A stretch of 64,000 bases of DNA from Candidatus Helarchaeota archaeon. Its GTDB lineage: Archaea; Asgardarchaeota; Lokiarchaeia; Helarchaeales; RDOG01. Shown here in pieces: positions 1,781-22,109 of this stretch. The stretch spans positions 1 to 64,000 of the forward strand of contig JAHPZH010000008.1 of assembly GCA_019058315.1 (NCBI GenBank), given 5' to 3'. The notes under the pieces were generated by a model. That model was not told where the DNA came from, did no database searches, and saw nothing but the letters and a program-made list of their open reading frames with translations. The position numbers were made by a program, and so were the translations under genes. The stretch's first letter is position 1. Each line of letters opens with the position of its first letter.

Positions 1781-1993
1781 ATGAAAAATGTAAAAATAAG
1801 AACAGATGGAATAAATAAATTAGTAGTGTTACATGATGATATCTATATTACTAATGAATTAGGTGTTAAATTGATAGATTGTGTAATTGACGGGCAGAAG
1901 ATTTGCGAAATTTCAAAAAGCTTAGAGATATCTACTAATGACTGTTTAGAATTCATAATAAGGTTCGTGATTTATGGTATATTACAATTATGA
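1781..1993 (+). CDS. Small PqqD/RRE-like winged-helix protein
   Basis: 70 aa; beta-rich N-terminus then NELGVKLIDCVIDGQKICEISKSL...CLEFIIRFVIYGIL, resembling PqqD 'N..G..I..l.dg...i.EI...l.....v.eFl..l...Gll'. Confidence 0.5.
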   Translation: MKNVKIRTDGINKLVVLHDDIYITNELGVKLIDCVIDGQKICEISKSLEISTNDCLEFIIRFVIYGILQL

Positions 1994-4900
1994 TATCGTC
2001 TTATCTTCATTAAAAATTTCCTCATATATTTCAGTTGCCATGTCACACAATTCTTCATCGTTTCTTAATATTTCAAACAATTTTTTAAGTTTTGGATTTT
2101 TAACATCTTTTAATTCGATTAAATTACATACCAAGTAATTTTTTATGGGATAATATCTATCTTTAATAAATTCTGTCAATAACGGATAGACTTTCTCAAA
2201 ATATTTTTTCCCAATTTCTATTAACGCTTCAATAACTGCACCACGAACGTGTGGGTTTTCATCTAATATAACAATTTTCAATAAATTAATCACTTCTTCT
2301 GGAAAAGACTGTCCTAATTTTCCTAATCTATTAGCTGTTATAATTCTCACAAAAGATTCCTTATTATGTAAGAAATCAATAAGTAATGGTTTAACATCGT
2401 TAAAATGCATCTTTCCGATTTCGATAATACTTTCAATAATAGCATTTTGTACTTCCTTCCATTCTATTCCCGTTCTGATACAGTAACTTGTATTTTCAGG
2501 GTCTTCAAATATCTCTTGAAACAAACTTAAAATTTTCTGGGGTTCATATATTGCAAATTCACGGAGAAGATTAATAGTTAATTCATAAGACTCTCTCTTT
2601 TTTATAGCTTTTTTAAAGAATGGAGAAGTCTTATTTATCTGTTTTACACCAGTAACATATAAAATAAATAATATATTTGAAATAATACTTGGAACAACCA
2701 TTGGATCTTCATTTTGCATAATTCGTTCCAAGGTTGGAGAAATAAGTTCGAAATTTTCTTTTCCAATTTTTCCAAATATATAAGAGATAATTTCTCGCGT
2801 TGGAACTTCAACTTCCAAGAATAAATCTTCAAATAGTGGAATTAAGAATACTACATCATCAAAATAATGTTCGAAAATCGCTTCAAAAATTCCCTCCCAG
2901 TATTGTACATGACCATAAATTATTTTTTCTCCCCGCAATTCAAAATAGGGCTTAGTTCTTTTTAAGAAATGTTTTATATTAATTCTTTTTAATTGGCTAT
3001 ATTTTTCAAGTAATTTATTAATAATCCGCAAATAGAAATCTTGAAAATAAGTCAAGGATAAATTTGGAATAAAACAAAGTGTTAAAAGTAAGACCCTTTC
3101 ATTAAAATTGAAATCACAAAACCAATTTTTAACCGTTCTTTTAATATATTTTGCATTTTCAATTGCTTTATGTAAAGTGAGTTTATCTGTTAAAACTTTT
3201 TTCAATTCCTCTTCGACAAATTCTTTATAATTATGTGGAAACCTCAAGTTGTGAATAATATCATTTTTTACTTCATTGGCATAGTTATATTCTTTCTTGT
3301 CAATAGTCTTCTTTTTAAAATAATATTTTAAATGATTTTCTAAAATCTGATATAAATGATTATCTGAATATGATTTTTCTACCTCCAGAACAACACTTAA
3401 ATCATCAATTTTCGATTTTGGATATTCAGCAAATCTTGTCCTTCTTCTCTTAACTGATTCTAATATTTCAACTCTTGTGGTCAGAATGACATAGTTATTA
3501 AAAATGGGATTTGAAATATTTAATATTCTTCTAAATTTATCACCTTTTGAAAGATCAAGAGTAGTACTACCAAAATAATCATCAAAAATTATAATTGCAT
3601 TTCTAAAGGCATTATAGTCTATATTTGAGCTGGGTTTAATAAAAAATAATTGATTTATATTTTTATTTTTTTGTTTTATATCAAATGCAAGATACATTGC
3701 AGTTGCAGTTTTTCCAATATTTGCTGGTCCTGATATAAGTAAAAATCTATTTTTTAATAATTTTTCAATCATACTTTGATAACCTTCAGGCTTGACGTAT
3801 ACATCTTCTACTCTTCTATAATCGATATAATCGGGATGCTTATCATTAAGTTCTAGTGTTTTTAATTGCTCACTCAATTCTATTTTTAATTCTTTCTTTG
3901 CAACCTTTGAATCGGTGAAATCTAAAGTCTTAATTGAATGTAAAAGAAATGCCCCCACCACATCCGCTGCATAAGGTTGCCATTTTTTATCGTGATCAGG
4001 TTTTTTATATGTATCACCAAAATCTGAAATTGCCCTTACTACCAAGATTTCGGGTCTGACTTCCGTAATTCCTCGGAGTATTGGGTATGCTGCGCCTGCG
4101 CTCTCCATCTCAACCCCTGCGATTTTAAGACTCTTCAATTCTTCAGAAAGGTATTTTCTAAGATTTGATTCTGGATCTCCGCTAATCTTTTCACCACTTG
4201 CAATTGAATACGCCCAATGGCATGTTTGAATATTTTTATTTTCTTTAGGTCTAGAAATCGTAATTTCATCAGTCCAATTTGGATTAGTACCCTCAAAATA
4301 TGATCTTAGTCGTTGACGAACCCAGCTACTTGCGGGATAAACTCTAGGTCTATAATCAATATTCCCATTTTGTTCTTTCTGAATTTCATAATAAATTATC
4401 TGGTCTGCAACAATAATATCACCTAATTGAAGGTGAGAGAACCTTTCCTTTAATCCACCAGCAATTCCACATACAATAAAAATTTTTGGTTTAAATTTGT
4501 TTAAAAATTTAGTTGTCAAAGTACTTGCTGAAATATTTCCGTACTCTGGTAGCGAATAAATCGCAATTCTTATTTTTTGCCCATTAAAATTAGTAATTTC
4601 CCCAAAATTTACAATATATTCTCCAAACTGGGCAATTTCTTCAACATTTTCAAGTCTATTAATTATTGGTTTCAATTCTAAAATCATTGGTGTCAATATT
4701 AGGATATCAATACTTTGTTCTTTATCCAAAATCCCTTCATTTTTTTCTATAAAGACTTCATGTATTGCACCTATACCTCTGTTGTAGATTTTTTCATGTT
4801 CTTCACTTAAAGAATTATCCTCGAGTTCTAGTTGATCTAATTTAACAAGTCCCATTAATCCCCCTATTTTAGTGATTCGATTTGATTTTAAATATAAATG

Positions 4901-5548
4901 TTTTAATTCTAAATTTTTACTTAACCCTTGTATTTTTCTAATTTTATTTCCCCTAAAATTTAACACTTTTAATTGTGCCAAATTTTCAATACCTTGTATC
5001 TTAGACAAATGGTTGTTATTAATGTGTAATCTTTCTAACCGTGATAAGTTTTCTAATCCTTCTATTTGCGTTATTTGATTCCAACCTAAGTTTAATTCTT
5101 GTAAATTAGGAAGGTTTCTTAAATTTTCAATTTTTTTAATTTCGTTTTTATAAAGCCATAATATTTCTAATTTAGCTAAATTATCAAATCCCTCTATTAT
5201 ATTTATTTTGTTATTGTTAAGGTCTAAAGTAATTAAATTATTTAGCTTTTCTAGACCCTCTATTTTATTAATGCTATTTCCTCCCATGTATAATTTTTCT
5301 AATCGTGAAAGTTCGTCTAACCCTTCAATTTTTCTAATAGAAGTCATACTTAAATTTAATTCTTTTAATTTTGTAAAAAAACGAATATCTTTTGGAATTC
5401 TTTTTAAAAGAATATAACACAAATTGAGACTGATTACAAAGTTCTTTTTATCAAATGCAAAATTTTCAGACTTTAGATTAAATTTTTTAATTATTTTTTT
5501 TATGTACTTCTTTTCAGGATATTTTTTATAATCTATCACTAATATCAC
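1988..5548 (-). CDS. Multidomain LRR - PNP/MTA-SAH nucleosidase - STAND NTPase (nSTAND3-like) - HEAT repeat protein
   Basis: ~9 SDS22-type LRRs (LxLxxNxIxKIEGL, aa ~60-250); PNP_UDP_1 motifs GIAGG, LGDIIVA, IASGEK, VEMESAG, VRAISD; Walker A GPANIGKT; Walker B IIIFDDYFG; C-terminal HEAT repeats (SFVRIITANRLGKLG, PHVRGAVIEALIEIG). Confidence 0.85.
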   Translation of the reverse strand: MILVIDYKKYPEKKYIKKIIKKFNLKSENFAFDKKNFVISLNLCYILLKRIPKDIRFFTKLKELNLSMTSIRKIEGLDELSRLEKLYMGGNSINKIEGLEKLNNLITLDLNNNKINIIEGFDNLAKLEILWLYKNEIKKIENLRNLPNLQELNLGWNQITQIEGLENLSRLERLHINNNHLSKIQGIENLAQLKVLNFRGNKIRKIQGLSKNLELKHLYLKSNRITKIGGLMGLVKLDQLELEDNSLSEEHEKIYNRGIGAIHEVFIEKNEGILDKEQSIDILILTPMILELKPIINRLENVEEIAQFGEYIVNFGEITNFNGQKIRIAIYSLPEYGNISASTLTTKFLNKFKPKIFIVCGIAGGLKERFSHLQLGDIIVADQIIYYEIQKEQNGNIDYRPRVYPASSWVRQRLRSYFEGTNPNWTDEITISRPKENKNIQTCHWAYSIASGEKISGDPESNLRKYLSEELKSLKIAGVEMESAGAAYPILRGITEVRPEILVVRAISDFGDTYKKPDHDKKWQPYAADVVGAFLLHSIKTLDFTDSKVAKKELKIELSEQLKTLELNDKHPDYIDYRRVEDVYVKPEGYQSMIEKLLKNRFLLISGPANIGKTATAMYLAFDIKQKNKNINQLFFIKPSSNIDYNAFRNAIIIFDDYFGSTTLDLSKGDKFRRILNISNPIFNNYVILTTRVEILESVKRRRTRFAEYPKSKIDDLSVVLEVEKSYSDNHLYQILENHLKYYFKKKTIDKKEYNYANEVKNDIIHNLRFPHNYKEFVEEELKKVLTDKLTLHKAIENAKYIKRTVKNWFCDFNFNERVLLLTLCFIPNLSLTYFQDFYLRIINKLLEKYSQLKRINIKHFLKRTKPYFELRGEKIIYGHVQYWEGIFEAIFEHYFDDVVFLIPLFEDLFLEVEVPTREIISYIFGKIGKENFELISPTLERIMQNEDPMVVPSIISNILFILYVTGVKQINKTSPFFKKAIKKRESYELTINLLREFAIYEPQKILSLFQEIFEDPENTSYCIRTGIEWKEVQNAIIESIIEIGKMHFNDVKPLLIDFLHNKESFVRIITANRLGKLGQSFPEEVINLLKIVILDENPHVRGAVIEALIEIGKKYFEKVYPLLTEFIKDRYYPIKNYLVCNLIELKDVKNPKLKKLFEILRNDEELCDMATEIYEEIFNEDKTIS
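4742..5548 (-). repeat. Copy A of duplicated ~270-codon LRR module (inverted partner at 20733-21539)
   Basis: Gapless protein alignment from MIL..DYKKYPE to RGIGAIHE.FIEK; 40-nt identical stretch 5049-5088 (rc) = 21193-21232. Confidence 0.9.
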
Positions 5549-5647: not shown

Positions 5648-6724
5648 TTATTTAAATTGTCCAAATAACATAAATTCAATTCTTTCTGTAAGCTCGTGAA
5701 ACCCACAAGCAATAGAAATCCTTAATGCTTCTTCTAGACAATCAAGTGCTCTTTTTAATTCGTTCATTTGCTGAAAAATAAGAGCAAGAATAGTAAGTTC
5801 TTCAACTACATCTTCCATATTTCGTTCCCTGCGATCTTTTTCTAGGATTTTTTCAAAATATTTTAATGATTCTTCGAAATTATCATTAAATAGAGAAACA
5901 AACCCATTCATAAACTTATCAAATTTCCCTTTATTATGTTGATATTCATGATCTTGTGGAATAAACACAAAAATAAGAAGAATTATTATTGTGATGAATA
6001 AAAGACGTAACTTTGCATCAGCTAAGTCTACTATTGTATAAATACTTGAACTCTTAGTTGTCAATTGAAATTCATCATTGTTAATTATTTTAATACAATC
6101 AAGTGAAGGAATATGGTAAATGTCCTCGCTCGTTAAATCATTTAATAGCTTTATAAATTCCCCATTAATATTAAATAGTATTTTCATAGCGTTTTCATAA
6201 TTTAATTCCCCAATTTTATCGACTTCACCATCTGATAATATGATTTTTGCGATTTTTATTAGTACAAAAGCAAATATTTCTTTACAATCAAGGAAAATCT
6301 CGACCTCATCTTTTAATGCCGTTTTACGTTGAACTGTTTTTTGATGGTCATTTATATAATCTACTAACTTATCATATTTTGAAAAAAAGAAGTTTGACTC
6401 TTGTTCTCTAACTTTCATTTGATTTACAAAGGAATCTTCAAAATATTTATTAATTAAATCATAAATTTCTCTCGGTGTCAATTCTCCAAAAATATCAGAA
6501 TCTTCTTCAGAGTCTAACCAATCGATTTTCAATTTTTGAGCTGGTCTCTTATAATAATTAATAAAATCCTTGAGATATTCTCGAAATGGTTCTTTAAATT
6601 TATTATAATCAATATTAACATCATCGAAAGAGTTTTTTTTATTATTTCTCTTCATACAGCATTTTTTATATTTTTTTCCACTACCACATGGACAGGGGTC
6701 ATTTCTTTTTACCATTTTGTTCAA
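5648..6724 (-). CDS. SEC-C zinc-motif protein with C-terminal TPR-like repeats
   Basis: RNDPCPCGSGKKYKKCC SEC-C motif; C-terminal FEESLKYFEKILE / LKRALDCLEEALRIS TPR-like helices. Confidence 0.75.
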   Translation of the reverse strand: MNKMVKRNDPCPCGSGKKYKKCCMKRNNKKNSFDDVNIDYNKFKEPFREYLKDFINYYKRPAQKLKIDWLDSEEDSDIFGELTPREIYDLINKYFEDSFVNQMKVREQESNFFFSKYDKLVDYINDHQKTVQRKTALKDEVEIFLDCKEIFAFVLIKIAKIILSDGEVDKIGELNYENAMKILFNINGEFIKLLNDLTSEDIYHIPSLDCIKIINNDEFQLTTKSSSIYTIVDLADAKLRLLFITIIILLIFVFIPQDHEYQHNKGKFDKFMNGFVSLFNDNFEESLKYFEKILEKDRRERNMEDVVEELTILALIFQQMNELKRALDCLEEALRISIACGFHELTERIEFMLFGQFK

Positions 6725-7719: not shown

Positions 7720-8916
7720 TTAAGCATCAGGAAGCCAAAATTCTATACAATAATCTTCTAATAATTGTATTTTCTCTGTTTTTGTCTTTAATTTTTTAAA
7801 TTCACTAACTAAATCAAGACCAGCTCTTTTTCTTTCAAACTCATTCGAGTAAAAAGGGAGTCTATATCTGATACATATATTTTGGCGTCGAATATGTCTT
7901 CCAAACTTTCTTACTTTACGATCATTCCACCCAGTCTTTTTATGTATATAGTAAGAAGTGTCCTTCTGATATTTTCGATGTCCGTCAAATTTATCATATG
8001 TCTGGTCTAATGGTCGATACCGACAATTTGTAATTTGAATTTTCCATTCCCAACACTTTTTTCTTTTTTTTTCCATTTCTTCAAAGGGTATCTCAAAATT
8101 ATATAACATAAATATAGATATTTCTCTTTTTGGAAATTTCGCTTCTAGCAATAAATCGATTTGTTCTTTTATTTCTGGATATTCATCATATCCCCTATCC
8201 CAAGCTATCTTAGGGTATACAAATCCTGCCTTTTTTAATTTTTTAGCAAGATATGGTTTTTTCTGAAGAATTTTTCCATCAAAGCCACATTGTGCCTCAC
8301 ATCTCTTAATCTGTCCATGTGTCTTTAAAAAAATTAGCTCATTTAAAATCCTTGATATATGGGGATTACCCAATAGATTATCATCATAAAACAAAACAGT
8401 ATCCTTAAAAACTTCTCCATCAATAGAAGCCTTACATTTAAACTCCGGTTCAATCTTCCAGGCTCCACAATATGAACATTTTCTGATACAACCTCTACTA
8501 GAATGTAAAATTTGAGTTTTATTTCCATTTCCTAATAATTCATACAATGGAATACATTTTTCAGCCTCTTCATGTCTCCCGACAAATACTTCATCACATT
8601 GAGTATATTCCTTACAATGGTGCGGCATCAAAGTTGCATATATTCCACCAACAATAATTTTTGCATCTGGAAATAATGAACGATAATGACTTACTGCCTC
8701 TTTTACATATTTAGACCAATATGTATATTCTGATGTAACATTGATTTCTTGGGGATTGAACGGAATTTCATTTATATCTAATAGACCTCTTGCTAAATAA
8801 ACTACATGGTTTTGCTTTTCATGATAAGCTCCAAGTTTTAATAATCCAATAGGAATATGTTTATTTCTTTGTTTCCCAGGTCTTGGAAATTTGGGCTCAA
8901 CCAATAAAATATTCAT
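7720..8916 (-). CDS. Cobalamin-binding radical SAM protein, last gene of DISARM-like operon
   Basis: B12-binding N-terminus (ILLVEP...PIGLLKLGAY...IIVGGIYAT); SSRGCIRKCSYC CxxxCxxC motif; FYDDNL; start overlaps drmE-like stop (ATGA 8913-8916). Confidence 0.85.
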   Translation of the reverse strand: MNILLVEPKFPRPGKQRNKHIPIGLLKLGAYHEKQNHVVYLARGLLDINEIPFNPQEINVTSEYTYWSKYVKEAVSHYRSLFPDAKIIVGGIYATLMPHHCKEYTQCDEVFVGRHEEAEKCIPLYELLGNGNKTQILHSSRGCIRKCSYCGAWKIEPEFKCKASIDGEVFKDTVLFYDDNLLGNPHISRILNELIFLKTHGQIKRCEAQCGFDGKILQKKPYLAKKLKKAGFVYPKIAWDRGYDEYPEIKEQIDLLLEAKFPKREISIFMLYNFEIPFEEMEKKRKKCWEWKIQITNCRYRPLDQTYDKFDGHRKYQKDTSYYIHKKTGWNDRKVRKFGRHIRRQNICIRYRLPFYSNEFERKRAGLDLVSEFKKLKTKTEKIQLLEDYCIEFWLPDA

Positions 8917-11519
8917 TTTTTATCTTCCCTTTCATCATTTTCTTTAAAAATTTTTACCTTTTTAATATCTTGTATTATGTAAATACTATTCTCGATTTTT
9001 TTGTATAATTCAAATTCTTCTAGAGATAAATCAGACAACTTGATATTTTTTTCAAGTATTTGATTGACTAATTTGCTCAATTTTTTGCTTATAGCTATAT
9101 GGTATTGCTGGATCTTTTTACCTTCTTCGTGAATAAGTGTAAAATAATTGAGAAGAAAAGGTTCATTCATTATTTGTCCCAGATGGTATAAATCTTTCGG
9201 ATCTCTTGTATAAGTTCTATTACCTTGCACCCAAGATTTAAAAGCATCGTAACTTCTGGGACTTTTTCCTAATTTTTCGAGAAATCTTTTATAAATTTTA
9301 TAAAAATCTTTATATGTAGCAAAATTGTGCTCAAAATATTGGGCTAATTTCCTTGACCAAGTTTCTATTAGTTCATTGTCAATTTCATCTTCAATACCCG
9401 ATATTTCTAAGACCATATCTATAATGGATTTTCGTTCATCTTGATCAATTAAAATGAGAAAATATCCTTCTTCAAACACTCTTGGGAATCCAATGTTAAT
9501 CTTTTCTTCTCCTTTTTCCATATACATATAAGTTTTATCAATATGTAACCTTCGCTTACCTATCTCTCCTGTTTTTTCATTTTTTAAAGTGACAACATAA
9601 TGATCTTTTTCAATAAATTCCCTTTCATATATCTTGTTATCAATTTTTTCTTTTTCTCTACGTAAATGATCTTCTGTTGATTCTTGTTCTTTTAATTCCT
9701 TAAATTTCTCATCTTTTTTTATAAGTTCATTAATAATATTTACAATGGTTAACTGGTCAGCCGATTCAATATTTTCGACCCTGACTTCTTGATTTTGGAT
9801 GCTTATTGCAGGCAATAATGCTTTTCTCCTCTCGAAATCTTCGAAGATAATATCTTTTGGAAGATTTAAATAATTTCTTATTTCTTCTAAATATGAAATA
9901 GTATTCCCTTCATCTTTGATGCTTAATTTTTTCACTAGATTGATTTGATCTTCAATTTGGGATTCATTTTTTCCTTCATAAGCGAAGAATAAAATTTCTT
10001 TCCAAGGTTTGAAAAAAATACTCATATATTTTGGTAGAATTGGTCCCGGAAGAATAAGTATTGACCTTGAAGTAACTTTACTTGAAGTATCCCAAGATGA
10101 TTGTATCTGTCCGAGAGTCTTTACGCATATATTTTCAATTATTTTTTTCAGCTCTACTTCTAAACTTCTTTTTTCTAATTGATTGGCTACGATAATACAA
10201 TCATTATTTTCTATTTTTGATAAAAAATCTAATAAACAATAATTTTTTGATATTCTTGTGTATGAATGGGGTTCCCAAAAGCGTTTGCAATCTTTCAATT
10301 CCACATACATACAATAAAATTCTCGAAGAATTGTGGATAATATTTCTTTAATCTTAGAATCTCCCATAGATTTAACTATGACATGAAAATCTTTCAAGAA
10401 TACATCAATTTCTCTAGTAGTCCATTCGTTTTCAATACAATATCTAGCTTTGAATTTATCAGGATTAATGAAAAGATTGTAGATTTCAAAATATAAAGAT
10501 TTTAGCTTGAAAAATCCATACCTTAAATCTTCAGGGATTAGATTATGATTTAGTTCCGATATTTGATGCATTCCTTCGTTGAAATGATAATCAATATTGC
10601 CTTGGGGAACTGACTTTATAATGTTCATCTGTTTAATTTCGTGATAAAAAATTTCTTTATCTATATTTAAACGAGAAGATAGACCCAAATTCATTTTTAA
10701 AAAGTAGTTAGTTGATTTTCTATTTACATATTCATGACTTTTTAAAAATGAATGGCTATAGTGTAACATCAAAGCATCCAATTCGTTTTTTAAAGGAAGA
10801 ATAAATTCAGAATTAGGGTTAGAAAAATGAAGTATAAATTGAACATCTTTTTCTTCAATAATATTTATCCATTCCAAAAAAACATCCAACTTGGGACTTG
10901 AATATATGAATCGATCTATATTTTCAAAGATGATTACTTTAAAATTAAATTTAGAATTAAAATCCAAAGATTCATCATTAAAAATTAACTTATCAAAGGT
11001 GTATCTGATTCTAGAATTCCGATCTTCTGGAAAAAATAAGACTTTCGGGCGATCAGGGTTTAAATAAATATTTTTTAGATATTTCTCTTTTTTTTCTTGT
11101 AATTCTCTTAAAATTCTGTGGTCTGCTCTTGGAAGATAGAATTTTACTATTATATCATTATCCTTCATATAAGCAACTGGAACTTTATAAAAGATGTAAC
11201 CATTTTCATCAAGCAAATAATAATTTTGATAATGAAGGTCAAATGGGCTTTCATATTTTTCTGATGAAGATTTAGTAAAAACAAATACAGTCTTTCCAGT
11301 CTGTTTTGCAGCCATATAAGAGATTATTGAAATGGGATATAAAATTCCTGAAGGTATTGAAATGATGATGTTTCGTTTTCCAATTATATTGTTTAGAAGA
11401 TTTAGAGTAAATTTAGTGAGTGGACTTAGAGTATCTTTTAGGGAAATTTTCTCAAGATAACTTTCTTTAATTGGATTATAAAAATTAAGTGGAAAAGAAT
11501 CGTACCAACTTTTTAACAT
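8913..11519 (-). CDS. drmE: DrmE-like protein (DISARM class II accessory, degenerate helicase-like fold)
   Basis: 868 aa in operon with drmA/B/C; degenerate RecA-like elements (IIFENIDRF, ILILPGP); C-terminal WSRKL...SYDAFKSWV...RDPKDL region resembles DrmE family; call relies heavily on context. Confidence 0.55.
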   Translation of the reverse strand: MLKSWYDSFPLNFYNPIKESYLEKISLKDTLSPLTKFTLNLLNNIIGKRNIIISIPSGILYPISIISYMAAKQTGKTVFVFTKSSSEKYESPFDLHYQNYYLLDENGYIFYKVPVAYMKDNDIIVKFYLPRADHRILRELQEKKEKYLKNIYLNPDRPKVLFFPEDRNSRIRYTFDKLIFNDESLDFNSKFNFKVIIFENIDRFIYSSPKLDVFLEWINIIEEKDVQFILHFSNPNSEFILPLKNELDALMLHYSHSFLKSHEYVNRKSTNYFLKMNLGLSSRLNIDKEIFYHEIKQMNIIKSVPQGNIDYHFNEGMHQISELNHNLIPEDLRYGFFKLKSLYFEIYNLFINPDKFKARYCIENEWTTREIDVFLKDFHVIVKSMGDSKIKEILSTILREFYCMYVELKDCKRFWEPHSYTRISKNYCLLDFLSKIENNDCIIVANQLEKRSLEVELKKIIENICVKTLGQIQSSWDTSSKVTSRSILILPGPILPKYMSIFFKPWKEILFFAYEGKNESQIEDQINLVKKLSIKDEGNTISYLEEIRNYLNLPKDIIFEDFERRKALLPAISIQNQEVRVENIESADQLTIVNIINELIKKDEKFKELKEQESTEDHLRREKEKIDNKIYEREFIEKDHYVVTLKNEKTGEIGKRRLHIDKTYMYMEKGEEKINIGFPRVFEEGYFLILIDQDERKSIIDMVLEISGIEDEIDNELIETWSRKLAQYFEHNFATYKDFYKIYKRFLEKLGKSPRSYDAFKSWVQGNRTYTRDPKDLYHLGQIMNEPFLLNYFTLIHEEGKKIQQYHIAISKKLSKLVNQILEKNIKLSDLSLEEFELYKKIENSIYIIQDIKKVKIFKENDEREDKK

Positions 11520-12349
11520 AGTGTTATATCCCTCCCCCTCGAAAAAATTGCTTCAAAAATGTCAATTAAGTGTTGAACACCACTTCCACTAATTACTATA
11601 CCAAGTTCAAAATTTTTATTAAAGCTATTTCTCCTTATCTCCCCACTTCCTATATAGGCTTCTATATTATCTGAAATAATAAATTTAGCGTGAATACTAC
11701 TTGTGACTCTCGTATTTTTTATTGAATAATGATAATCTTTTATTATGATTCGACTGAGAACTTTTTCATCCTCTATAGCTTTAAATAATCCTATAATTCT
11801 CTTTCGTTTCTTATTCTGAAATAATTCTCTTGTCAAAATTTTAATATTTACGCCTTGAGTTGCTTTCGAAATTAACTGTTCAGAAAAGACAGCTAATCCA
11901 TTGTATTCTAAAAAAGGTGAACAGATTCTGATAGTTGAATTTGCAGAATCAAACAATCTCTTAATTTCACTCTTTAAAAGACTATAATAAATTTGTTTTT
12001 CTTTAAAATGTTCTTTAAGACCATAAATATCGTAAATGGGAAAAGAAAGGCATAAACATTTAAGGAAAAATGATAATTTTTTTAATACGGGCATTTTAAT
12101 TTGTTCTAGTTGAGGTCGGACTTGTAACTCATTTTTCTTAAAGGGAAGATTTATATTCCGTAATTTTAATACACCTTCTTTTATAAGATACTGTAATGCC
12201 ATCCCCTTTGATTCTTCATTAAATTGGTTTAATTTGGAGTTTTCTAGTATATCTTTAACTTTGATAATTGGTTTATCTTCGAAGAGTAGGAATAAAATTT
12301 TAATAATTTCTTCATATTCCTCCCAAGGAAATATTACCACCCCCAACAT
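11513..12349 (-). CDS. drmC: Phospholipase D-family nuclease (DrmC-like)
   Basis: IRICSPFL; single HKD motif IHAKFIISD followed by AYIGSGE...NFELG; overlaps neighbours. Confidence 0.8.
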   Translation of the reverse strand: MLGVVIFPWEEYEEIIKILFLLFEDKPIIKVKDILENSKLNQFNEESKGMALQYLIKEGVLKLRNINLPFKKNELQVRPQLEQIKMPVLKKLSFFLKCLCLSFPIYDIYGLKEHFKEKQIYYSLLKSEIKRLFDSANSTIRICSPFLEYNGLAVFSEQLISKATQGVNIKILTRELFQNKKRKRIIGLFKAIEDEKVLSRIIIKDYHYSIKNTRVTSSIHAKFIISDNIEAYIGSGEIRRNSFNKNFELGIVISGSGVQHLIDIFEAIFSRGRDITLC

Positions 12350-14250
12350 CTGGATTCAAAGCGATATTTCCCTAGGAATACATCCCTATCAAGAAATTGG
12401 TTAAACATAGTGCAGACAAATTCAGGAAGATAGAGACAGGCAAAACAAGCGCCCTTCTCGTGAATGCAAGTAGGATCGAGAGTACATTCTTGAATATCAA
12501 ACCTGATATCTTGGAACCAATTCCAAATCTCGTTTTCAAATACATATTTAAATCCACCTATGTTAATATTGCTAGTAGAATAAATAAAAAATGCATTTGT
12601 GCTTGGAAATATCATTTCTCCACACGACTGCTCATCCAATCCGGTATAGATAGATGACCTACGTATTAAAATATGCGAAAGTGTGTGTAAAAGGGTCTTT
12701 AAGTGTGAGTATGCTCGTGGATTATTTTCCTTTAAATTTAAAAAAAATTCAAAAAGTCTAGCTTTTGATGATGGAATTACCTCTATCAAGTGGTTTTCTT
12801 TTAGCCATTTACAAATTTTCATTTTATCCAAGATGAATATTATGCCCTCTGTCTGATATGGATACACATACGCTTCAAATTTATCACGATTGTTAAATGC
12901 AGACCAAATTGGTTCGAAATGGGGAGGATTATTGTCTGGCTCGTACCACTTATGAACCCCTTTTATTAAACCATAACATGACAATAAAATATTAATATCG
13001 GATACGTAGATAAGTTGATCAACATAATATTTTTCTTTTATTTCACTTAAATGATCTGATTTTACTGCTCTTTTAATAGGATCCAAAATTTTATCGATAT
13101 AATCTTTATATATTATATTTTGAGAAGATTCTGCATTTAAGCCACCTATTAATGCTGCAAAATCATTGATTTCTCTAATTTGTTCTATTGATCTGTACTT
13201 ATTTTTCAATTCATTAACCACACTTTCAATCCTCGGCATATTCCAACGCTCTCTCCATGACCGTTCTCTTTCTTCATCAGAACTTAATTCGCTAAATTCG
13301 GGCCACTCCGTAAACATTACATTTCTCATTGCTTCATCATTATATCTTTCAATGTATGTATGAAGTTTCTCTAGAGAAATAGATTCATCACTCAATTGTT
13401 CGTGAAATTTCTTTAAAAAAAGACCAAGTAGAATATATTCAAGATCTTCCAAATTGATATTATCCGAATGTGGAATATCAATGGAGCTATCTGTAACTGG
13501 TAAAAATATAGCACCTTCTGTAACAGTAAGGGGGATTGGTTTTTTCTTTTCCGCATTTGAAATTATATTCCCCCAATCAATTTGGTCTTTATGTTCACAC
13601 CAAAACATAAAAATACTGACCCAATTGTTATAATTTTTGCAACCGTTTTTTTGGCATGATACTTCATATGTAGCTAAAGAATCTTTGCTCCCTCTTCTTA
13701 ATTTAACAGGATGATTCTTACAAGACCATTCAAGTTGCCTAATGTTACCGCACGTTTCACAATAATGCATGACACTAATTTGTTCATATTCACCATCACA
13801 ACTTGGGTTTTTACATTTTATGTCGAAATTCTTTAATCTATTCTTAAATTCGGGTCCACCAATTATGTATAAATTTCCGCACTCTTTACATGCAAAGCTT
13901 CTAGGAAAAATCTGAAAGGTTCCTCCATAATCAAGCTCGGATTCACTACCAAATTTTCCATGAGTTAGTTTGAATTTCTTCAATATGAGATCATTTATTC
14001 TTGCATCGGTCAGACCAGGAAGGGTCATTTGATAATCTGCGTGATTAATACGCCGACTGTAATCAGTTTGAATTCGATGAAATAGACGATTTTTAAGCCT
14101 TTCTTCATTATGTATTTTTAAATTTCGGTTATTTTCATCAGGAATTACATAGGTAATTTGAAATGTTAATTTTTTTCGATTAAAGATAAGACCTTTTACT
14201 GCATGGAATATTGCACTACTTCCTGCAAAAGAATTCTCAAAGGGACACAT
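12334..14250 (-). CDS. drmB: DUF1998/MrfA zinc-binding protein (DrmB-like)
   Basis: LLHTLSHILI; C-terminal CTLDPTC...GACFACLYLPEFVCTMFNQFLDR; N-terminal CxxC pairs; likely start ATG 14250 just after drmA stop with AAGGTGA SD. Confidence 0.85.
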   Translation of the reverse strand: MCPFENSFAGSSAIFHAVKGLIFNRKKLTFQITYVIPDENNRNLKIHNEERLKNRLFHRIQTDYSRRINHADYQMTLPGLTDARINDLILKKFKLTHGKFGSESELDYGGTFQIFPRSFACKECGNLYIIGGPEFKNRLKNFDIKCKNPSCDGEYEQISVMHYCETCGNIRQLEWSCKNHPVKLRRGSKDSLATYEVSCQKNGCKNYNNWVSIFMFWCEHKDQIDWGNIISNAEKKKPIPLTVTEGAIFLPVTDSSIDIPHSDNINLEDLEYILLGLFLKKFHEQLSDESISLEKLHTYIERYNDEAMRNVMFTEWPEFSELSSDEERERSWRERWNMPRIESVVNELKNKYRSIEQIREINDFAALIGGLNAESSQNIIYKDYIDKILDPIKRAVKSDHLSEIKEKYYVDQLIYVSDINILLSCYGLIKGVHKWYEPDNNPPHFEPIWSAFNNRDKFEAYVYPYQTEGIIFILDKMKICKWLKENHLIEVIPSSKARLFEFFLNLKENNPRAYSHLKTLLHTLSHILIRRSSIYTGLDEQSCGEMIFPSTNAFFIYSTSNINIGGFKYVFENEIWNWFQDIRFDIQECTLDPTCIHEKGACFACLYLPEFVCTMFNQFLDRDVFLGKYRFESRCWGW

Positions 14251-14251
14251 A

Positions 14252-17200
14252 TCAAGATTCACCTTCTTTAGTGTATTTATTAAAAATATGTTGATAAGCA
14301 CCGCTTAAGGAAAATGAAACCTCAGGTTGTATTCCTCTCATTCCATATTGAGTCTGGAAATAATAATCTTTTTGATTAGCTAATGCATTTGGGAAGAAAT
14401 CAATCACACCTGTGTAATTTGCTAAATAATTCAACCTCCTTTCTACTTCATTAGGAATTTGAGAAAGAATACGTTTCACGCCAATATGGTCTAAATGGGT
14501 ATAATAGGCCTTCTTTATGAATTCAATTAATTTCTCTCTATTTTCATTATTTTCAAAAATTTCATTCACATCCACTGTTCTATAAATGGGTCTTCCCATA
14601 AGATTGCTGAAATAATTTAATATACTCCCGCAAAAAATTGAAGTGAAGGTCTGTTTAAAACCTAGATTAGCCCATCTAGATAACGGAGTTCTTTCTACTT
14701 TATGATCTAACATTTCATGATATAATTCAAAATTCTGGTAATAGCTTAGATCCCGAACTCTATTTGGATAAAACCACATAAAAATGATTCCAACGAATTC
14801 TCTACCAACTCTACTATATGATTGGATGTATTCTGAAGTGTTACGAGTCATTCCTTGAAAAATCATTACATTCCATCGATTAATATCAACGCCATGGGAT
14901 ACCACACTTGTAGCAAAAGTAACATGTATTTTTTTGCCAAATACTGCTTCAATTTCATTAATAGCTTCCTTGATTTCGTCTAGTGAGTTATCTCCAGTTA
15001 ATGGTTTAGATACTATTTGTAATTCTTGAATTTTAGAAGTAACAACAGTATGTAGAAAATAATTCATGCCATGAACATCTGCTTTTTTTGTATGGTAAGT
15101 GAGCAAGCATTGATAATAGGATAACAATTCTAAGAAATCATCAACACTCATGCAATACTTTTTTGCCATCTCTTCTTTATTTTCTGATAAATATTTAAAA
15201 TAATCTGCTATATGGTGCAAAGTATGTAAAGATGCATATTGATTATCGCGCAAGTTAGGTTTCAAACCTAGTATAATACGCTGTGTCTGGATATCATCTT
15301 CAATTTTCTCATATTTAAAGAAAAAATCATGTTCACTGCCTTCCATTGGCGATTTTCCAGGAAATACAAAAACATCTTTCCCGTATAGTTGCTTGATTTG
15401 TTCCTTTACACCAGAGACTGTGGCTGTCAAGCCCAGATACTTGAATTCTTTGTTTGAAAATGAATTTAACATAGTATTTAACAGACTTTCAAAATGGGAA
15501 TCTATAGTGCCAAAACCTTCTCGTAACAAATGCATCTCATCTTGAATCATTAAAGAAGGACCATCACAAGGAGTTTCTTCTTCCATTCCTTGTTTTTTAC
15601 ATGTTTTATATCTTGTTAACTTCACTTCGCAAAAATCCATTAAAGGTACATAACCATGACCATCGGGACATTTGGATATTCGACCTCCAAGCAAGTTTTT
15701 AAACCTTCGGTTTGATGCCACACTTGCAAGTTTATCCACTGTCGAGACAATGAATGAAGGGAGAAATCGATATACTTCTTCGTTTGTATAATATAAATTG
15801 AATTGCTCATGACATTCCTTACATTCATGATATATGCTTTTTAGTTCCTTATTTATTTCTCGTATAACACCCCCCTTACAAAATGGACATTCGTCTAACA
15901 ATATTCCTTTGACTTCTTTTCCCTCTTCATTTAATTTCTTTATCTGTCTTATAGCATCCAGACTAAACCTTGGAAACTCATCTGATACACCAACGAAATA
16001 TCCAAGCGAAAAAGGTTCCCCTCCAATATCATTATTTTTTTTAATCTTCTCCGCCCAAATAATGATTTTGGCTATTCTATGCAATTGTTGAATCGACAAC
16101 ATTCTTAGGGGGAATTTAACAAATCCTGATACACCTCGATGCTTTCCCCTCAACCGATCCAAAAACATTTGAAAAATAGCAATGCCAAAATATGCTTCTG
16201 ATTTACCTCCACCCGTTTTTACGTGTAAGAGTTCAACTCTATGACGGTTTCTATTTGGAATAACAAGATCGGGAATTAGTGAGACAATAAAAATGATTTG
16301 GAATAATCGCCAAGTTTTAAAATTACTAGCATTCATAAATGTTTCTTGCATTAATCTAAATGCTTTCAGAGCCATTTCATTTTGTTTTAAAGTGTCAATA
16401 CCTGTCTGATAACTCGAGAGCACGGTTTCAAATTGCTTAATATTACATGAAAATTCTTCTTCACTATTTCGGGAATCCCCTTTATAAATATCTTGTAGTT
16501 TTTTCATTTCATGTTCTAAAGCTTCAAGTGTGGCAATACAATCTTCTGATTTAAGTTTTTCAAATTCAGCAGTTATCCCATTAAAAGAAGTTCTTGGTGC
16601 AAATTTTAACTGTTTAAATATTGCCCAATGTCTCGTCTGTATTAAACCATTTTTATAATCTGCTTGGCAATTTAGACACCTTAGCATGTTTTGCTGTTTA
16701 TATTTTATATCTTCGTATTCATATTCATATTCAAAAGGAATGATTTGAGTTTCTAACAATTCTATTTTTAAATGACAATTGAATAGAAAAGTTTCGTAAC
16801 TTTGATCCTTCTTAGTAACATTTATCATTCTTATTGTAATAATATCAGAATCTGCTGTAAATCTTTCCCGTTCAAAATGTATTTCTGCCTTCCAAAATAT
16901 TTTTTTTCGAGGTGAGGACTTTATATGTTCCGATAATTTTGCCTCAAAAACGTCCTTTGATTCCATCCAATCTTTTACAAATCCTTTTTTAGAAAATAAA
17001 TTTTCATTTTGATATATATCCTCAATATTATCCGTAAAATCGATTTCTTTATTACCTTCATCCTCTATTAGAAATTCAATTTTTGGAAATTTACAATCGT
17101 AACGTGTCCAAATCTCAGCAAAGCCAGGATCGGATTCCTTTTCCTCTAATTCAGGATTAGTTTTAATAGCATCTAAATAATCCTTCTGTTCGTCAAAATT

Positions 17201-17506
17201 GGGGTATACTCTTAAAAAGACACTACATGAAGGAGTAATCATGATGGAACTTGTTGTACCACTTGGTACTTTAAAATTTATAGAAAAACTATTATGCCTC
17301 ATTGCAGTTCTTGATTGAATTTTTGCTTGACCCGTTGGTTCACCCACCGCGTAATCTTTACTGGAATCAGCAAGTGTTCCTATTATAAAAAATTTAGATG
17401 GTTTAGTTAATAAGCGAAGACGTTTACATGATTGATGTGTCCCATTAAGTTTTTGTAACACATAAGTATAAAAATCCTCAACAAATTGAATTTGGTATTC
17501 ATTCAT
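14252..17506 (-). CDS. drmA: SF2 helicase (DrmA-like)
   Basis: WRLFQ Q-motif, KTGGGKSEAY, FPLRMLSIQQ, STVDKLA, QDEMHLL, TAT, ATSVVSHGVD, YIQSYSRVGR; likely start ATG 17506. Confidence 0.85.
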   Translation of the reverse strand: MNEYQIQFVEDFYTYVLQKLNGTHQSCKRLRLLTKPSKFFIIGTLADSSKDYAVGEPTGQAKIQSRTAMRHNSFSINFKVPSGTTSSIMITPSCSVFLRVYPNFDEQKDYLDAIKTNPELEEKESDPGFAEIWTRYDCKFPKIEFLIEDEGNKEIDFTDNIEDIYQNENLFSKKGFVKDWMESKDVFEAKLSEHIKSSPRKKIFWKAEIHFERERFTADSDIITIRMINVTKKDQSYETFLFNCHLKIELLETQIIPFEYEYEYEDIKYKQQNMLRCLNCQADYKNGLIQTRHWAIFKQLKFAPRTSFNGITAEFEKLKSEDCIATLEALEHEMKKLQDIYKGDSRNSEEEFSCNIKQFETVLSSYQTGIDTLKQNEMALKAFRLMQETFMNASNFKTWRLFQIIFIVSLIPDLVIPNRNRHRVELLHVKTGGGKSEAYFGIAIFQMFLDRLRGKHRGVSGFVKFPLRMLSIQQLHRIAKIIIWAEKIKKNNDIGGEPFSLGYFVGVSDEFPRFSLDAIRQIKKLNEEGKEVKGILLDECPFCKGGVIREINKELKSIYHECKECHEQFNLYYTNEEVYRFLPSFIVSTVDKLASVASNRRFKNLLGGRISKCPDGHGYVPLMDFCEVKLTRYKTCKKQGMEEETPCDGPSLMIQDEMHLLREGFGTIDSHFESLLNTMLNSFSNKEFKYLGLTATVSGVKEQIKQLYGKDVFVFPGKSPMEGSEHDFFFKYEKIEDDIQTQRIILGLKPNLRDNQYASLHTLHHIADYFKYLSENKEEMAKKYCMSVDDFLELLSYYQCLLTYHTKKADVHGMNYFLHTVVTSKIQELQIVSKPLTGDNSLDEIKEAINEIEAVFGKKIHVTFATSVVSHGVDINRWNVMIFQGMTRNTSEYIQSYSRVGREFVGIIFMWFYPNRVRDLSYYQNFELYHEMLDHKVERTPLSRWANLGFKQTFTSIFCGSILNYFSNLMGRPIYRTVDVNEIFENNENREKLIEFIKKAYYTHLDHIGVKRILSQIPNEVERRLNYLANYTGVIDFFPNALANQKDYYFQTQYGMRGIQPEVSFSLSGAYQHIFNKYTKEGES

Positions 17507-17649
17507 TATATTTTCCCCAATTAATAATAACAACTTACAAATTAATATTTCAATAATTTGATATGAATTAATTTAATTCAATATTTACTTTTTAGTTTTT
17601 CTTTTCTTATTTTATTGAAAGAAAATTGAATCTGAATCTAAAATGATGT

Positions 17650-20732: not shown

Positions 20733-21539
20733 GTGATTTTATTGAATGATTACAAAAAATATCCCGAAAGGAAATTTATAAATGAATTAATGAAAAAATT
20801 TTCTCTTAGAAATGATAATTTCAGATTTGATAAAAAAAAATACTTAATAAGCCTTAATTTATATAACATACCTTTAAAAAAAATCCCTATAGAAATCGGT
20901 TTTTTTTTAAAATTAAAGGAAATAAATCTAAGTAACACTTCTATTACAAAGATTGAAGGATTAGACAAATTTTCTCAATTAGAAAAATTATATCTCGAAC
21001 AGAATATCATTAACAAAATAGAGGGTTTAGAAAGACTATCCAATCTAACAACATTATATCTCCACTTCAATAAAATTAATAAAATAGAGGGATTGGATAA
21101 TTTAATAAAATTAAAAGTGTTATGGCTCTATAAAAACGAAATTAAACAGATTGAAAATTTAAACAATCTTCCTAATTTACAAGATTTAAACCTAGGTTGG
21201 AATCAAATAACGCAAATAGAAGGATTAGAAAAAATATCGCAATTAGAACGATTGCAACTTAATAATAATGATATTTCTAAGATAGAAGGGCTCGAAAATT
21301 TAACACAATTAAAATTCCTGAACCTTAACAAAAATAGAATTAGAAAGATGGTGGGGTTAAATAAAAATTTAGAATTACAATATTTATATCTCAAAAAAAA
21401 TCGAATAACAAAAATAGAAGGATTAAATAGTCTTTTTAAATTAGATAAAATAGAACTCGATGGTAATTCTTTAAATAAAGAACATAAGGAAATAATTGAC
21501 AGAGGTATAGGGGCAATACACGAAAATTTTATAGAGAAG
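20733..21539 (+). repeat. Copy B of duplicated LRR module
   Basis: See copy A; homology ends sharply after RGIGAIHENFIEK. Confidence 0.9.
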
Positions 21540-22109
21540 ATAATTAACGAAAAACAAGAGAAAAAGGGAATTAATAAACTCAATCTTAAAGATTATGAAG
21601 AAATAATAGTAATAATTTATAGAATTGGATTAGAAATGCAAAGACATCCAAAACAATTTTTTAAATTGAAAGAACCTGAACTTCGTAATGAATTATTAGT
21701 TCACCTCAATATACATTATAAAGGGGCAGCTACAGGTGAAACAATTAATAATAACGGAAAAACAGACATTTTAATTAGGAGAGACAATAAAAATATTTTA
21801 ATTGCAGAATGTAAAATTTGGAGGGATGAAGCATGGTTAATAAAGGGAATAAAACAATTATTAGGGTATCTTACATGGGAAGACATAAATACTGCCATAA
21901 TCCTATTTTGTAAAAATAAAAAATTAACTCCTATTATAAAAAAAGCAAGAGAAATTCTTGAAAATCATACTTGTTATGAAAAAAAATGTGAATTCATAGA
22001 AGATGAATTAAAAAATGAAAAAATAATTTTATATAAATTTCATAATTCTGATGATTTTGATAAAAAATTGAATTTAACATTAATTGTTATCCATATACCC
22101 GATAATTAG
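20733..22109 (+). CDS. LRR protein with C-terminal PD-(D/E)xK restriction-endonuclease-like domain
   Basis: SDS22-type LRRs aa ~60-250; EPELRNELL...GETINNNGKTDILI...IAECKIW...GIKQLLGYLTW nuclease motif. Confidence 0.8.
   Translation: MILLNDYKKYPERKFINELMKKFSLRNDNFRFDKKKYLISLNLYNIPLKKIPIEIGFFLKLKEINLSNTSITKIEGLDKFSQLEKLYLEQNIINKIEGLERLSNLTTLYLHFNKINKIEGLDNLIKLKVLWLYKNEIKQIENLNNLPNLQDLNLGWNQITQIEGLEKISQLERLQLNNNDISKIEGLENLTQLKFLNLNKNRIRKMVGLNKNLELQYLYLKKNRITKIEGLNSLFKLDKIELDGNSLNKEHKEIIDRGIGAIHENFIEKIINEKQEKKGINKLNLKDYEEIIVIIYRIGLEMQRHPKQFFKLKEPELRNELLVHLNIHYKGAATGETINNNGKTDILIRRDNKNILIAECKIWRDEAWLIKGIKQLLGYLTWEDINTAIILFCKNKKLTPIIKKAREILENHTCYEKKCEFIEDELKNEKIILYKFHNSDDFDKKLNLTLIVIHIPDN

Follow-up and report, generated by a model that had tools for sequence, protein, structure and literature searches.

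Immune proteins of the STAND/NLR type are thought to keep to a fixed plan in which effector, switch and sensor follow one another. Avs (AVAST) proteins that carry a PNP effector at their N-terminus have been described (Rousset et al. 2023, bioRxiv 10.1101/2023.01.24.525353), and the catalytic Asp of the PNP domain has been shown to be essential in Cap17 (D472A) of CBASS and in DtcC (D353A) of Detocs (bioRxiv 10.1101/2023.01.24.525353). The NTPase of Avs5 (SIR2-nSTAND3-TPR/Sel1/PPR; 9jap, 9nc9) is of the nSTAND3 family (bioRxiv 10.1101/2025.07.08.663546). PNP domains also precede a STAND NTPase in fungal and bacterial PNP_UDP-NLRs (PNP-NACHT/NB-ARC-WD40/ANK/TPR; P0082, P0097, P0131), while SDS22-like LRRs stand N-terminal of a nucleotide switch in the ROCO proteins (LRR-Roc-COR; P0004) of Asgard archaea and bacteria.

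The protein described here (P0001), from an Asgard (Promethearchaeota) archaeon, shares with PNP-Avs proteins the effector-STAND-repeat order and a Cap17 immune-type PNP domain N-terminal of the NTPase, but adds a ~270-aa LRR cassette before the effector, has an archaeal host and carries a presumed HEAT sensor. With Avs/AVAST-like proteins in general it has in common a central STAND P-loop NTPase with intact Walker A and B motifs and a C-terminal repeat domain, whereas its effector is not at the extreme N-terminus, being preceded by the 269-aa cassette; PADLOC matched it to none of the Avs1-5 models and only to the PN effector, PDC-M60C and, weakly, mad8. Avs5 and P0001 have NTPases of one Pfam family, but in P0001 a PNP effector takes the place of SIR2, the presumed sensor is HEAT rather than TPR-like, and the LRR is extra. 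Cap17 and DtcC likewise have a PNP domain with the conserved catalytic Asp, although they are activated by a SAVED cyclic-nucleotide sensor or a phospho-receiver, whereas P0001 would be activated by its STAND module. The PNP_UDP-NLRs differ from P0001 in their NTPase clade, their repeats and the lack of an N-terminal LRR, and eukaryote-type NLRs differ in that the NTPase of P0001 is nSTAND3 (with no NACHT or NB-ARC match in Pfam), its LRR is N-terminal and its C-terminal repeats are HEAT. ROCO proteins have the same type of LRR, but P0001 has no Roc, Ras or COR match in Pfam and an enzyme domain is intercalated between its LRR and its switch.

Architecture of the locus

The window analysed is a 64,000-nt stretch of DNA (positions 1 to 64,000 of contig JAHPZH010000008.1), in which the following features were delimited:

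1988..5548, minus strand: whole gene of P0001, with a GTG start at 5548
4742..5548, minus strand: LRR cassette, aa 1-269 (Pfam, repeat register, paralogue alignment, and gapless 68% identity to aa 1-269 of the neighbour)
4727..4741, minus strand: fusion junction, a 4-residue linker (NEGI) followed by the TTG codon L274
3926..4717, minus strand: PNP_UDP_1 nucleosidase domain, aa ~278-541 (Pfam, PADLOC, AF2 model, Foldseek)
3800..3925, minus strand: helical linker between PNP domain and NTPase, aa 542-583 (structure models)
3326..3799, minus strand: nSTAND3 P-loop NTPase, aa 584-741 (Pfam and alignment of relatives)
2864..3325, minus strand: helical and winged-helix part of the STAND module, aa 742-895 (alignment and model)
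1991..2863, minus strand: C-terminal HEAT-like alpha-solenoid of ~9 helical hairpins, aa ~896-1186 (Pfam HEAT_2, alphaRep, model, PP2A-A)
20733..21539, plus strand: sister LRR cassette, aa 1-269 of a 458-aa PDC-S54 fusion protein

The gene is one uninterrupted ORF of 1186 codons plus stop; the database copy of the protein (P0002) starts 3 codons downstream of the GTG. Its modules run from an SDS22-type LRR through the PNP_UDP_1 nucleosidase and the nSTAND3 NTPase, with its helical and winged-helix parts, to the HEAT solenoid, and all catalytic and switch motifs are intact. The four-module protein proposed in the initial annotation, including its extra N-terminal LRR block, is thus confirmed by the single frame and by Pfam matches to LRR_4 (3.8e-30) and LRR_8 (1.3e-19; aa ~41-250), PNP_UDP_1 (5.4e-14; aa 282-509), nSTAND3 (1.5e-22; aa 584-741) and HEAT_2 (1.5e-8; aa 1084-1131). 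Structures were modelled domain by domain, and a full-length multi-domain alignment that misplaced the PNP rows was left aside.

No other protein with this module order was found, a feature search in Atlas with aa 1-560 gave no usable match, and the architecture is a singleton known from one genome and one assembly. No orthologue occurred in 40 relatives or in 400 Asgard genomes, which is what would be expected of an accessory defence gene.

The PNP domain

The domain had been annotated as a complete PNP_UDP_1 domain, and its AF2 model (pLDDT 91) agrees, with MTA/SAH nucleosidases (MTAN; 3bl6/1nc1) as the best Foldseek matches (probability 1.0, TM 0.84). Its key residues are E291, GIAGG at 361-365, E482 (in VEME) and D509 (in VRAISD); across 56 immune-type PNP domains E482 and D509 are invariant and E291 nearly so. 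VEME and ISD line up with the corresponding motifs in MTANs of solved structure, and from the known MTAN numbering we take E291, E482 and D509 to be the counterparts of Glu12, Glu174 and Asp197. Matched by motif rather than by alignment to Cap17 or DtcC numbering, D509 is the probable equivalent of Cap17 D472 and DtcC D353. VRAISDF recurs unchanged in a receiver-PNP protein.

PADLOC assigned the domain to the "Effector PN-superfamily" (6e-26; aa 269-519), and it scored 89 bits with the PADLOC CBASS PN-effector profile versus 51 bits with the NCBIfam MTAN profile (cut-off 169). It is 30-32% identical to SAVED-fused and receiver-domain-fused PNP domains, and its relatives include fusions to NB-ARC-TPR, NACHT and STAND-HEAT. 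Its sequence therefore places it nearer the immune-effector PNPs than the housekeeping ones, and it is probably an immune ATP-nucleosidase of the MTAN-like Cap17/DtcC kind, with ATP as a putative substrate by extrapolation from those two enzymes. Such effectors are rare in Asgard archaea, occurring in 4 of the 400 genomes searched, this one included. Among further PNP proteins of Asgard archaea, G169 (in which an unknown part accompanies the PNP domain) and G124 (WD40-Roc-PNP) are no relatives of the P0001 architecture.

The STAND-HEAT core

The Walker B motif, described beforehand as nSTAND3-like with DDYFG, reads IIIFDDYFG (aa 652-660, with D656 and D657) and is accompanied by a Walker A motif, GPANIGKT (aa 607-614, with K613), and a further key residue, R692. 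The winged-helix region (aa 742-895) contains a conserved LRFPHNY motif and a nearly invariant His880; across 31 relatives G612, K613, D656, D657, R692 and H880 all occupy invariant or nearly invariant columns. The C-terminal HEAT repeats, likewise called beforehand, are borne out by the HEAT_2 match, by matches of the solenoid to alphaRep and PP2A-A, and by a STAND-HEAT model (pLDDT 87.7) that matches EfAvs5, the AVAST5 filament, Avs3/4, SAMD9 and NLRP2.

The region spanning NTPase and HEAT repeats falls within a populous family with varying N-terminal effectors. Its closest relatives (P0044-P0054; one from a Promethearchaeota MAG) are 31-38% identical from NTPase to HEAT and have an equal module order after the effector, but carry another effector of 140-260 aa (DUF4062/NIR, HD-CE or Cap4 nuclease) and never a PNP domain or LRR. 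A family of ~905-958-aa PNP-STAND-HEAT proteins was rejected as a source of orthologues, as hhalign with the nSTAND3-HEAT profile matched the HEAT stretch only (probability 56%); by this comparison its members are analogues with different STAND modules. The immune-type PNP match and the nSTAND3-HEAT relatives with other effectors support the earlier proposal of an immune-type PNP-STAND-HEAT core, which in sequence is an ordinary Avs/NLR-like design; the novelty of P0001 is the N-terminal LRR.

The LRR cassette and its copies

In the cassette, a ~35-aa N-terminal cap or leader is followed by about ten SDS22-type repeats of 22 residues each (aa 36-255) and by a C-terminal cap whose last residues are FIEK. 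A sister copy, with 68% protein identity over a gapless alignment of aa 1-269 and fused to a PDC-S54 restriction-endonuclease-like domain, is encoded by a gene at a distance of 15 kb. There the cassette takes the place of the N-domain native to PDC-S54 proteins, which have 400-444 aa and no LRR in the 8 other Asgard genomes examined for them. A distant copy (41% identical) precedes a Ymh domain, a HEPN domain (PMC3710099), on another contig of the same genome. The closest relative of the P0001 cassette is thus an effector fusion, the LRR-nuclease, rather than an LRR-only protein, and by these comparisons the cassette is a discrete, mobile "leader + SDS22-type LRR" module placed before toxin-like domains (PNP, PDC-S54 nuclease, Ymh HEPN RNase).

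The initial annotation offered two readings, a dual-sensor receptor or a PNP-STAND-HEAT core that had recently captured the LRR as a second sensor or inhibitor, and placed the join near 4740. The core and the addition stand: homology to the neighbour stops at aa 269, exactly at nt 4742, and a search for homologues without the N-terminal LRR found a collinear PNP-nSTAND3 protein in Promethearchaeota isolate 33X4 that opens directly at the PNP domain. No LRR was present in nSTAND3-HEAT or PNP relatives among the best 150 of 1.84 billion cluster representatives. The PNP domains of P0001 and the 33X4 protein are not sisters in the PNP tree, so the latter is an analogue of the ancestral state and not the ancestor. 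Its Met1 lies 7 codons before the conserved ID-hLIhT motif that opens the PNP domain (aa 280-286 in P0001) and L274 lies 6 codons before it; this TTG codon may be a relic of the original start codon. The recency does not hold, being contradicted by the 68% protein identity, dS of ~0.76 and dN/dS of 0.24 between the copies.

Two central repeats are almost identical between both copies, and concave-face positions are modestly more divergent (58% versus 72% identity). Since that excess is only modest and comparison of the two copies gave no sign of positive selection on the concave face (dN/dS = 0.11, with dS saturated), a fast-evolving sensor surface is not demonstrated by this comparison.

Proposed mechanism

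We favour the reading, at a probability of roughly 0.6, that P0001 is a single-chain Avs/NLR-like antiviral sensor with a PNP effector and a mobile N-terminal LRR cassette as a second control. Within a defence island, the gene neighbours a DISARM-like operon (DrmA/B/C/E), a Metallophos-STAND-LRR (phosphoesterase) gene and a gene for a TPR protein, and this context of DISARM and STAND genes supports a putative antiviral protection triggered by a viral protein. Such a protein would be recognised by the C-terminal HEAT solenoid, the presumed sensor; recognition would free the nSTAND3 NTPase for NTP binding and oligomerisation, as in Avs5-type filaments; and oligomerisation would gather the N-proximal PNP domains, which could then cleave the N-glycosidic bond of ATP/dATP and so halt cell growth and virus replication.

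As the sole non-catalytic domain of the nuclease and HEPN proteins, the cassette should be their regulator or sensor. In P0001 it would most likely give the PNP effector a second layer of control, serving as an input or as a lock. Complex prediction of the cassette with the PNP domain in trans scored 0.02, below the mark of 0.32, a value that counts neither for nor against binding, and a search among shorter proteins found no two-domain LRR-PNP protein.

Alternative explanations

The LRR-effector proteins could instead be trans partners of STAND sensors, with the cassette as a docking or adaptor part and P0001 as a natural fusion of both units, a Rosetta stone for an Asgard class of cassette-marked effectors (nuclease, HEPN RNase, nitrilase-like, PNP) working with STAND NTPases. 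We consider both this fusion and the wider class unlikely. Clear STAND genes number only about four in this genome (phmmer among the four NTPases gave self-matches only). The LRR-nuclease gene precedes the Metallophos-STAND-LRR gene in the same direction, with 215 nt between them, and the LRR-Ymh gene lies 289 nt upstream of a gene for a 1471-aa NACHT-like STAND protein. The full-length orthologue of that STAND protein in another family (G040; 31% identity) again has at its flank a gene of the same direction, which encodes an LRR and a weak CN_hydrolase match. However, these are three pairs, and both gene classes reside in defence islands, so that adjacency may reflect co-residence. The genome's own LRR-CN_hydrolase gene adjoins no P-loop ORF, none of the five other nSTAND3 relatives with checked flanks has an LRR gene nearby, and the PNP domain of P0001 already occupies the ordinary Avs effector position, where no adaptor is needed.

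A further possibility, which we regard as rather improbable, is that viruses target host LRR proteins and that the cassette is an integrated decoy that would mimic these proteins and activate the STAND module upon viral modification or binding, comparable to the integrated domains of plant NLRs. The same LRR type is indeed expanded in this genome (44 proteins, mostly LRR-only), and the purifying selection on the cassette, with its near-identical central repeats, would suit a mimic with a conserved surface. The fusion of the cassette to nuclease and HEPN domains without STAND nevertheless better fits a sensor or regulator, and its closest relative is the effector fusion described above.

It is very doubtful that P0001 has no immune role and instead links an NTPase switch to nucleoside salvage, as a regulator in signalling or metabolism. 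Most members of PNP_UDP_1 have housekeeping roles, and LRR/Roc signalling proteins are abundant in Asgard genomes, but the PNP domain scores far higher with the immune effector profile than with that of MTAN, two other genes of the genome supply housekeeping PNP_UDP_1 proteins, and the genome's own housekeeping PNP roots far from the P0001 domain in the PNP tree. The gene is moreover absent from relatives and located in a defence island, and NADase and nuclease effectors are found in its STAND relatives.

We give least credence to an assembly chimera of an LRR gene and a PNP-STAND-HEAT gene: although the architecture is a singleton, 44 paralogous LRR genes could mislead an assembler and the exact 67-nt junction was absent from metagenome_contigs and genome_contigs (scans that may leave out the window's own genome), the join lies in unique sequence just past the C-terminal cap and not within the repeated part, which argues against repeat-mediated misassembly, the frame stays open over 1186 codons at ~27% GC, where chance stop codons are frequent, the nearest paralogue has only about 76-80% DNA identity, and the 209-kb contig, from a 12-contig assembly, contains no Ns.

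Implications

P0001 departs from the effector-switch-sensor plan by a second repeat module placed before the effector, and the occurrence of one cassette on three toxin domains within a single Asgard genome shows how this module was acquired. The cassette's displacement of the native regulatory domain of PDC-S54, a known defence candidate, provides a natural example of sensor or regulator swapping. The range of immune ATP-nucleosidase effectors also appears to extend to Asgard archaea. If the adjacency of LRR-effector and STAND genes is functional, it would bear on the origin of LRR-STAND cooperation in the lineage closest to eukaryotes; and if P0001 is a fusion of partners that otherwise act in trans, the LRR-STAND partnership would have arisen separately from that of eukaryotic NLRs and would have its LRR on the side of the effector.

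Gene and module order of P0001

P0001, the 1186-residue protein studied here, is encoded in a single reading frame of 1186 codons on the minus strand (window 1988-5548), and as the local DNA is only ~27% G+C, a frame of this length is not a product of chance. Profile matches to the whole protein, together with one from PADLOC, fall in the following order:

Residues ~41-250: LRR_4/LRR_8 (E 4e-30)
Residues 269-519: CBASS-type 'Effector PN-superfamily' (PADLOC, E 6e-26)
Residues 282-509: PNP_UDP_1 (E 5e-14)
Residues 584-741: nSTAND3 (E 1.5e-22)
Residues 1084-1131: HEAT_2 (E 1.5e-8)

The four-module architecture proposed in the initial annotation is thus borne out within one ORF. Walker A (GPANIGKT) is at 607-614, and Walker B (IIIFDDYFG), which holds the DDYFG that the annotation had named, is at 652-660. 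P0001 is a real gene; its product is a STAND protein of Avs/NLR-like design that pairs an immune-type PNP effector with a presumed HEAT sensor and carries an N-terminal LRR cassette.

Genomic setting

The host assembly (5.79 Mb in 12 contigs, ~30% GC) contains an archaeal SSU rRNA (815 bits), and relatives from its class carry the label Promethearchaeota, which is the Asgard phylum. Within the assembly, the P0001 gene is the last of a minus-strand run that includes a DISARM-like block, past which lie a TPR protein, an LRR-nuclease and a Metallophos-STAND-LRR protein. Genes around P0001 include:

5648-6724, minus strand: SEC-C/TPR protein of 358 residues, its SEC-C zinc motif at the N-terminus and its TPRs at the C-terminus
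7720-17533, minus strand: DISARM-like block of DrmA (2e-112), DrmB, DrmC/PLD and a DrmE C-domain
20733-22109, plus strand: LRR-nuclease of 458 residues, a sister cassette joined to PDC-S54 (PADLOC, 2e-56)
22324-25452, plus strand: Metallophos-STAND-LRR protein of 1042 residues, its C-terminal LRR of a type unlike that of the cassette

The SEC-C/TPR gene lies 99 nt upstream of the P0001 gene; the two share a strand, and co-transcription is possible. In the DISARM-like block, Pfam detected no methyltransferase, and the gene that comes after the block matches a B12-binding domain weakly. Given the DISARM-like and STAND content, and as the first housekeeping genes appear only beyond ~29 kb, the region is a defence island. 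Searches of 40 close relatives and of 400 genomes from this phylum turned up no P0001 orthologue, as expected if P0001 is taken to be an accessory defence gene.

A re-used LRR cassette

Between P0001 and the neighbouring LRR-nuclease, residues 1-269 form a gapless alignment at 68% identity, with homology running from a common GTG start to an abrupt end after FIEK. This cassette opens with a cap/leader, continues with about ten 22-residue SDS22-type repeats and closes with a C-terminal cap. Between the two copies dS is ~0.76 and dN/dS 0.24, with 58% identity at concave-face positions, 72% over the remainder and two central repeats that are nearly identical. The copies are old and under purifying selection, with modest surface divergence, and the earlier suggestion that the LRR was captured recently is therefore not supported.

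The C-terminal domain of the LRR-nuclease looks restriction-endonuclease-like. Its PDC-S54 homologues in the eight other Asgard genomes checked are 400-444 residues long and carry a non-LRR N-terminal domain of ~230 residues, so in the host genome the cassette has displaced the native N-domain of the protein. The host encodes 44 ORFs with the same SDS22-type LRR, most of them LRR-only, and its LRR fusions include LRR-Ymh (Ymh being a HEPN RNase family; PMC3710099), LRR-ankyrin, LRR with a weak CN_hydrolase match, and a helicase/Cas1-like/LRR protein. The cassette is a modular unit set directly ahead of toxin-like domains, and the role it must play in proteins of two domains is that of regulator or sensor.

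Many of the 44 ORFs share a conserved N-terminal leader of ~35 residues. The LRR-only proteins are 250-560 residues long, and several lie in tandem clusters (C3:1351691-1354310 and C5:405694-408379 of the host assembly among them). The helicase fusion (L018; G000:C1:395417-399736, minus strand) is a 1438-residue ORF in which a DEAD/ResIII helicase and a weak Cas1-like region (E 3e-5) are combined with an SDS22-type LRR at the C-terminus. Outside the host genome, an ENA metagenome protein (P0196, 511 residues) joins the same type of LRR (46% identity) to TIR_2/DUF1863 and so adds a further LRR-effector protein of two domains.

LRR-effector genes also occur beside STAND genes, which is suggestive, and only suggestive, of a functional partnership between the two. 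Such a partnership is kept as a less likely rival reading, the most novel of those considered. The LRR-nuclease gene lies 215 nt upstream of the Metallophos-STAND-LRR gene, the LRR-Ymh gene lies 289 nt upstream of a gene for a 1471-residue NACHT-like STAND, and in another Asgard genome (G040) the gene adjoining the orthologue of this STAND encodes an LRR with a weak CN_hydrolase match. However, the host's own LRR-CN_hydrolase gene has no adjoining P-loop ORF, and none of the five other nSTAND3 relatives whose flanks were checked has an LRR gene nearby.

The LRR-Ymh and 1471-residue STAND genes belong to a second defence island (L031; G000:C1:1967-17936), together with an Eco57I-like R-M enzyme, two TIR proteins and a 1254-residue ORF without annotation. 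The G040 orthologue (L053:3027-9811, on G040:C54), from a different Asgard family, is full-length at 31% identity, and the co-directional gene downstream encodes a 690-residue protein whose CN_hydrolase match scores 23.8 bits. At another host locus (L032; G000:C5:868289-877934), a 1010-residue protein, in which an LRR block lies between unannotated flanks, is encoded 3.8 kb upstream of the host's only other clear nSTAND3 protein (926 residues, nSTAND3-TPR).

The PNP effector

An AlphaFold2 model of the PNP domain, built from 56 relatives, reached a pLDDT of 91, and its top PDB matches were MTA/SAH nucleosidases (probability 1.0, TM up to 0.84). Among 56 aligned immune-type PNP domains, neither E482 (VEME) nor D509 (VRAISD) varies and E291 is almost invariant, and the VEME and ISD motifs of P0001 line up with the same motifs in solved MTANs. 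From known MTAN numbering, we take E482, D509 and E291 to be the counterparts of Glu174, Asp197 and Glu12. The initial annotation's complete PNP domain thus stands, with its putative catalytic residues conserved and its model MTAN-like.

The domain's score is 89 bits for the PADLOC PN-effector model but only 51 bits for the NCBIfam MTAN equivalog, which has a cut-off of 169. It shares 30-32% identity with SAVED-fused and receiver-fused PNP domains (Cap17-like and DtcC-like architectures), and its relatives have NB-ARC-TPR, NACHT or STAND-HEAT as fusion partners. Together with the two further, separate PNP_UDP_1 genes of the host, which are housekeeping, these results place the domain among immune effectors and not among housekeeping enzymes. 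Substitution of the aspartate equivalent to D509 abolished activity in Cap17 (D472A) and DtcC (D353A) (bioRxiv 10.1101/2023.01.24.525353). From sequence and model, we conclude that the P0001 PNP is a predicted catalytically competent immune-type nucleosidase; by extrapolation from analogous systems, its substrate may be ATP/dATP.

In a quick tree, the P0001 PNP clusters with stand-alone PNP proteins of ~335 residues (SH-aLRT 98). The nearest of these (~337 residues) sit inside a conserved operon encoding proteins of 260 residues, PNP, ~270 residues and ~600 residues (L027:4025-8501; L029:4231-8726). Their operon partners at these two loci have no Pfam match, and the four genes may together make up a so far undescribed system in which PNP is the effector. 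Elsewhere in Asgard archaea, a 1214-residue protein (L026:3721-7365, minus strand; G124:C89) runs from WD40 at the N-terminus through a Roc/Ras GTPase to an immune-type PNP at the C-terminus, placing a nucleosidase effector on a ROCO-like switch.

The STAND-HEAT core

An exhaustive HMMER search with residues 262-1186 against 1.84 billion cluster representatives returned 4768 matches, with the full query covered by P0001 alone. The top matches (31-38% identity), one of them from a Promethearchaeota MAG, are nSTAND3-HEAT proteins of 640-1020 residues whose N-terminal 140-260 residues are DUF4062 (recently renamed NIR, an NADase), HD-CE, Cap4 nuclease or unknown. Across 31 relatives, the conserved columns include the P-loop, DD-F-G, R692, LRFPHNY and His880 of the winged-helix region. 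The STAND-HEAT model (pLDDT 87.7) resembles SAMD9, PP2A-A HEAT repeats, EfAvs5, the AVAST5 filament, Avs3/4 and NLRP2; the NTPase of Avs5 is itself an nSTAND3 (bioRxiv 10.1101/2025.07.08.663546). The core of P0001 thus belongs, as an ordinary member, to a STAND family in which effectors are swapped, and PNP occupies its effector slot.

The fusion point

None of the 150 best representatives combined PNP with a P0001-type STAND, and none carried an LRR. A PNP-STAND-HEAT family of ~905-958 residues differs from P0001 in its STAND, and profile comparison aligned a HEAT stretch only. The search for homologues without the N-terminal LRR, proposed in the initial annotation, yielded one, in a single genome of 400 Asgard genomes: a PNP-nSTAND3 protein of Promethearchaeota isolate 33X4, collinear with P0001 residues 279-738 (25% identity, E 2e-28), with the PNP at its very start, no LRR and non-coding DNA upstream. 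Because its PNP is not sister to that of P0001 in the quick tree, the two fusions may have arisen independently. In P0001, the cassette is followed by a four-residue linker (NEGI) and then L274, a TTG codon six codons ahead of the conserved PNP opening ID-hLIhT; Met1 of the 33X4 homologue lies seven codons ahead of this motif. It is possible, judging from these sequences, that L274 is a relic of the original PNP start.

The junction was not found in any independent assembly, and P0001 could in principle be an assembly chimera. This is very improbable, however, as the join falls in unique sequence past the cassette's own cap and outside the repeats, the reading frame is kept throughout despite AT-rich DNA, and the 209 kb contig contains zero Ns. 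As a genuine fusion, P0001 has a core that adds a new member to known kinds; what is new in design is the placement of an LRR ahead of the effector and the modular re-use of the cassette.
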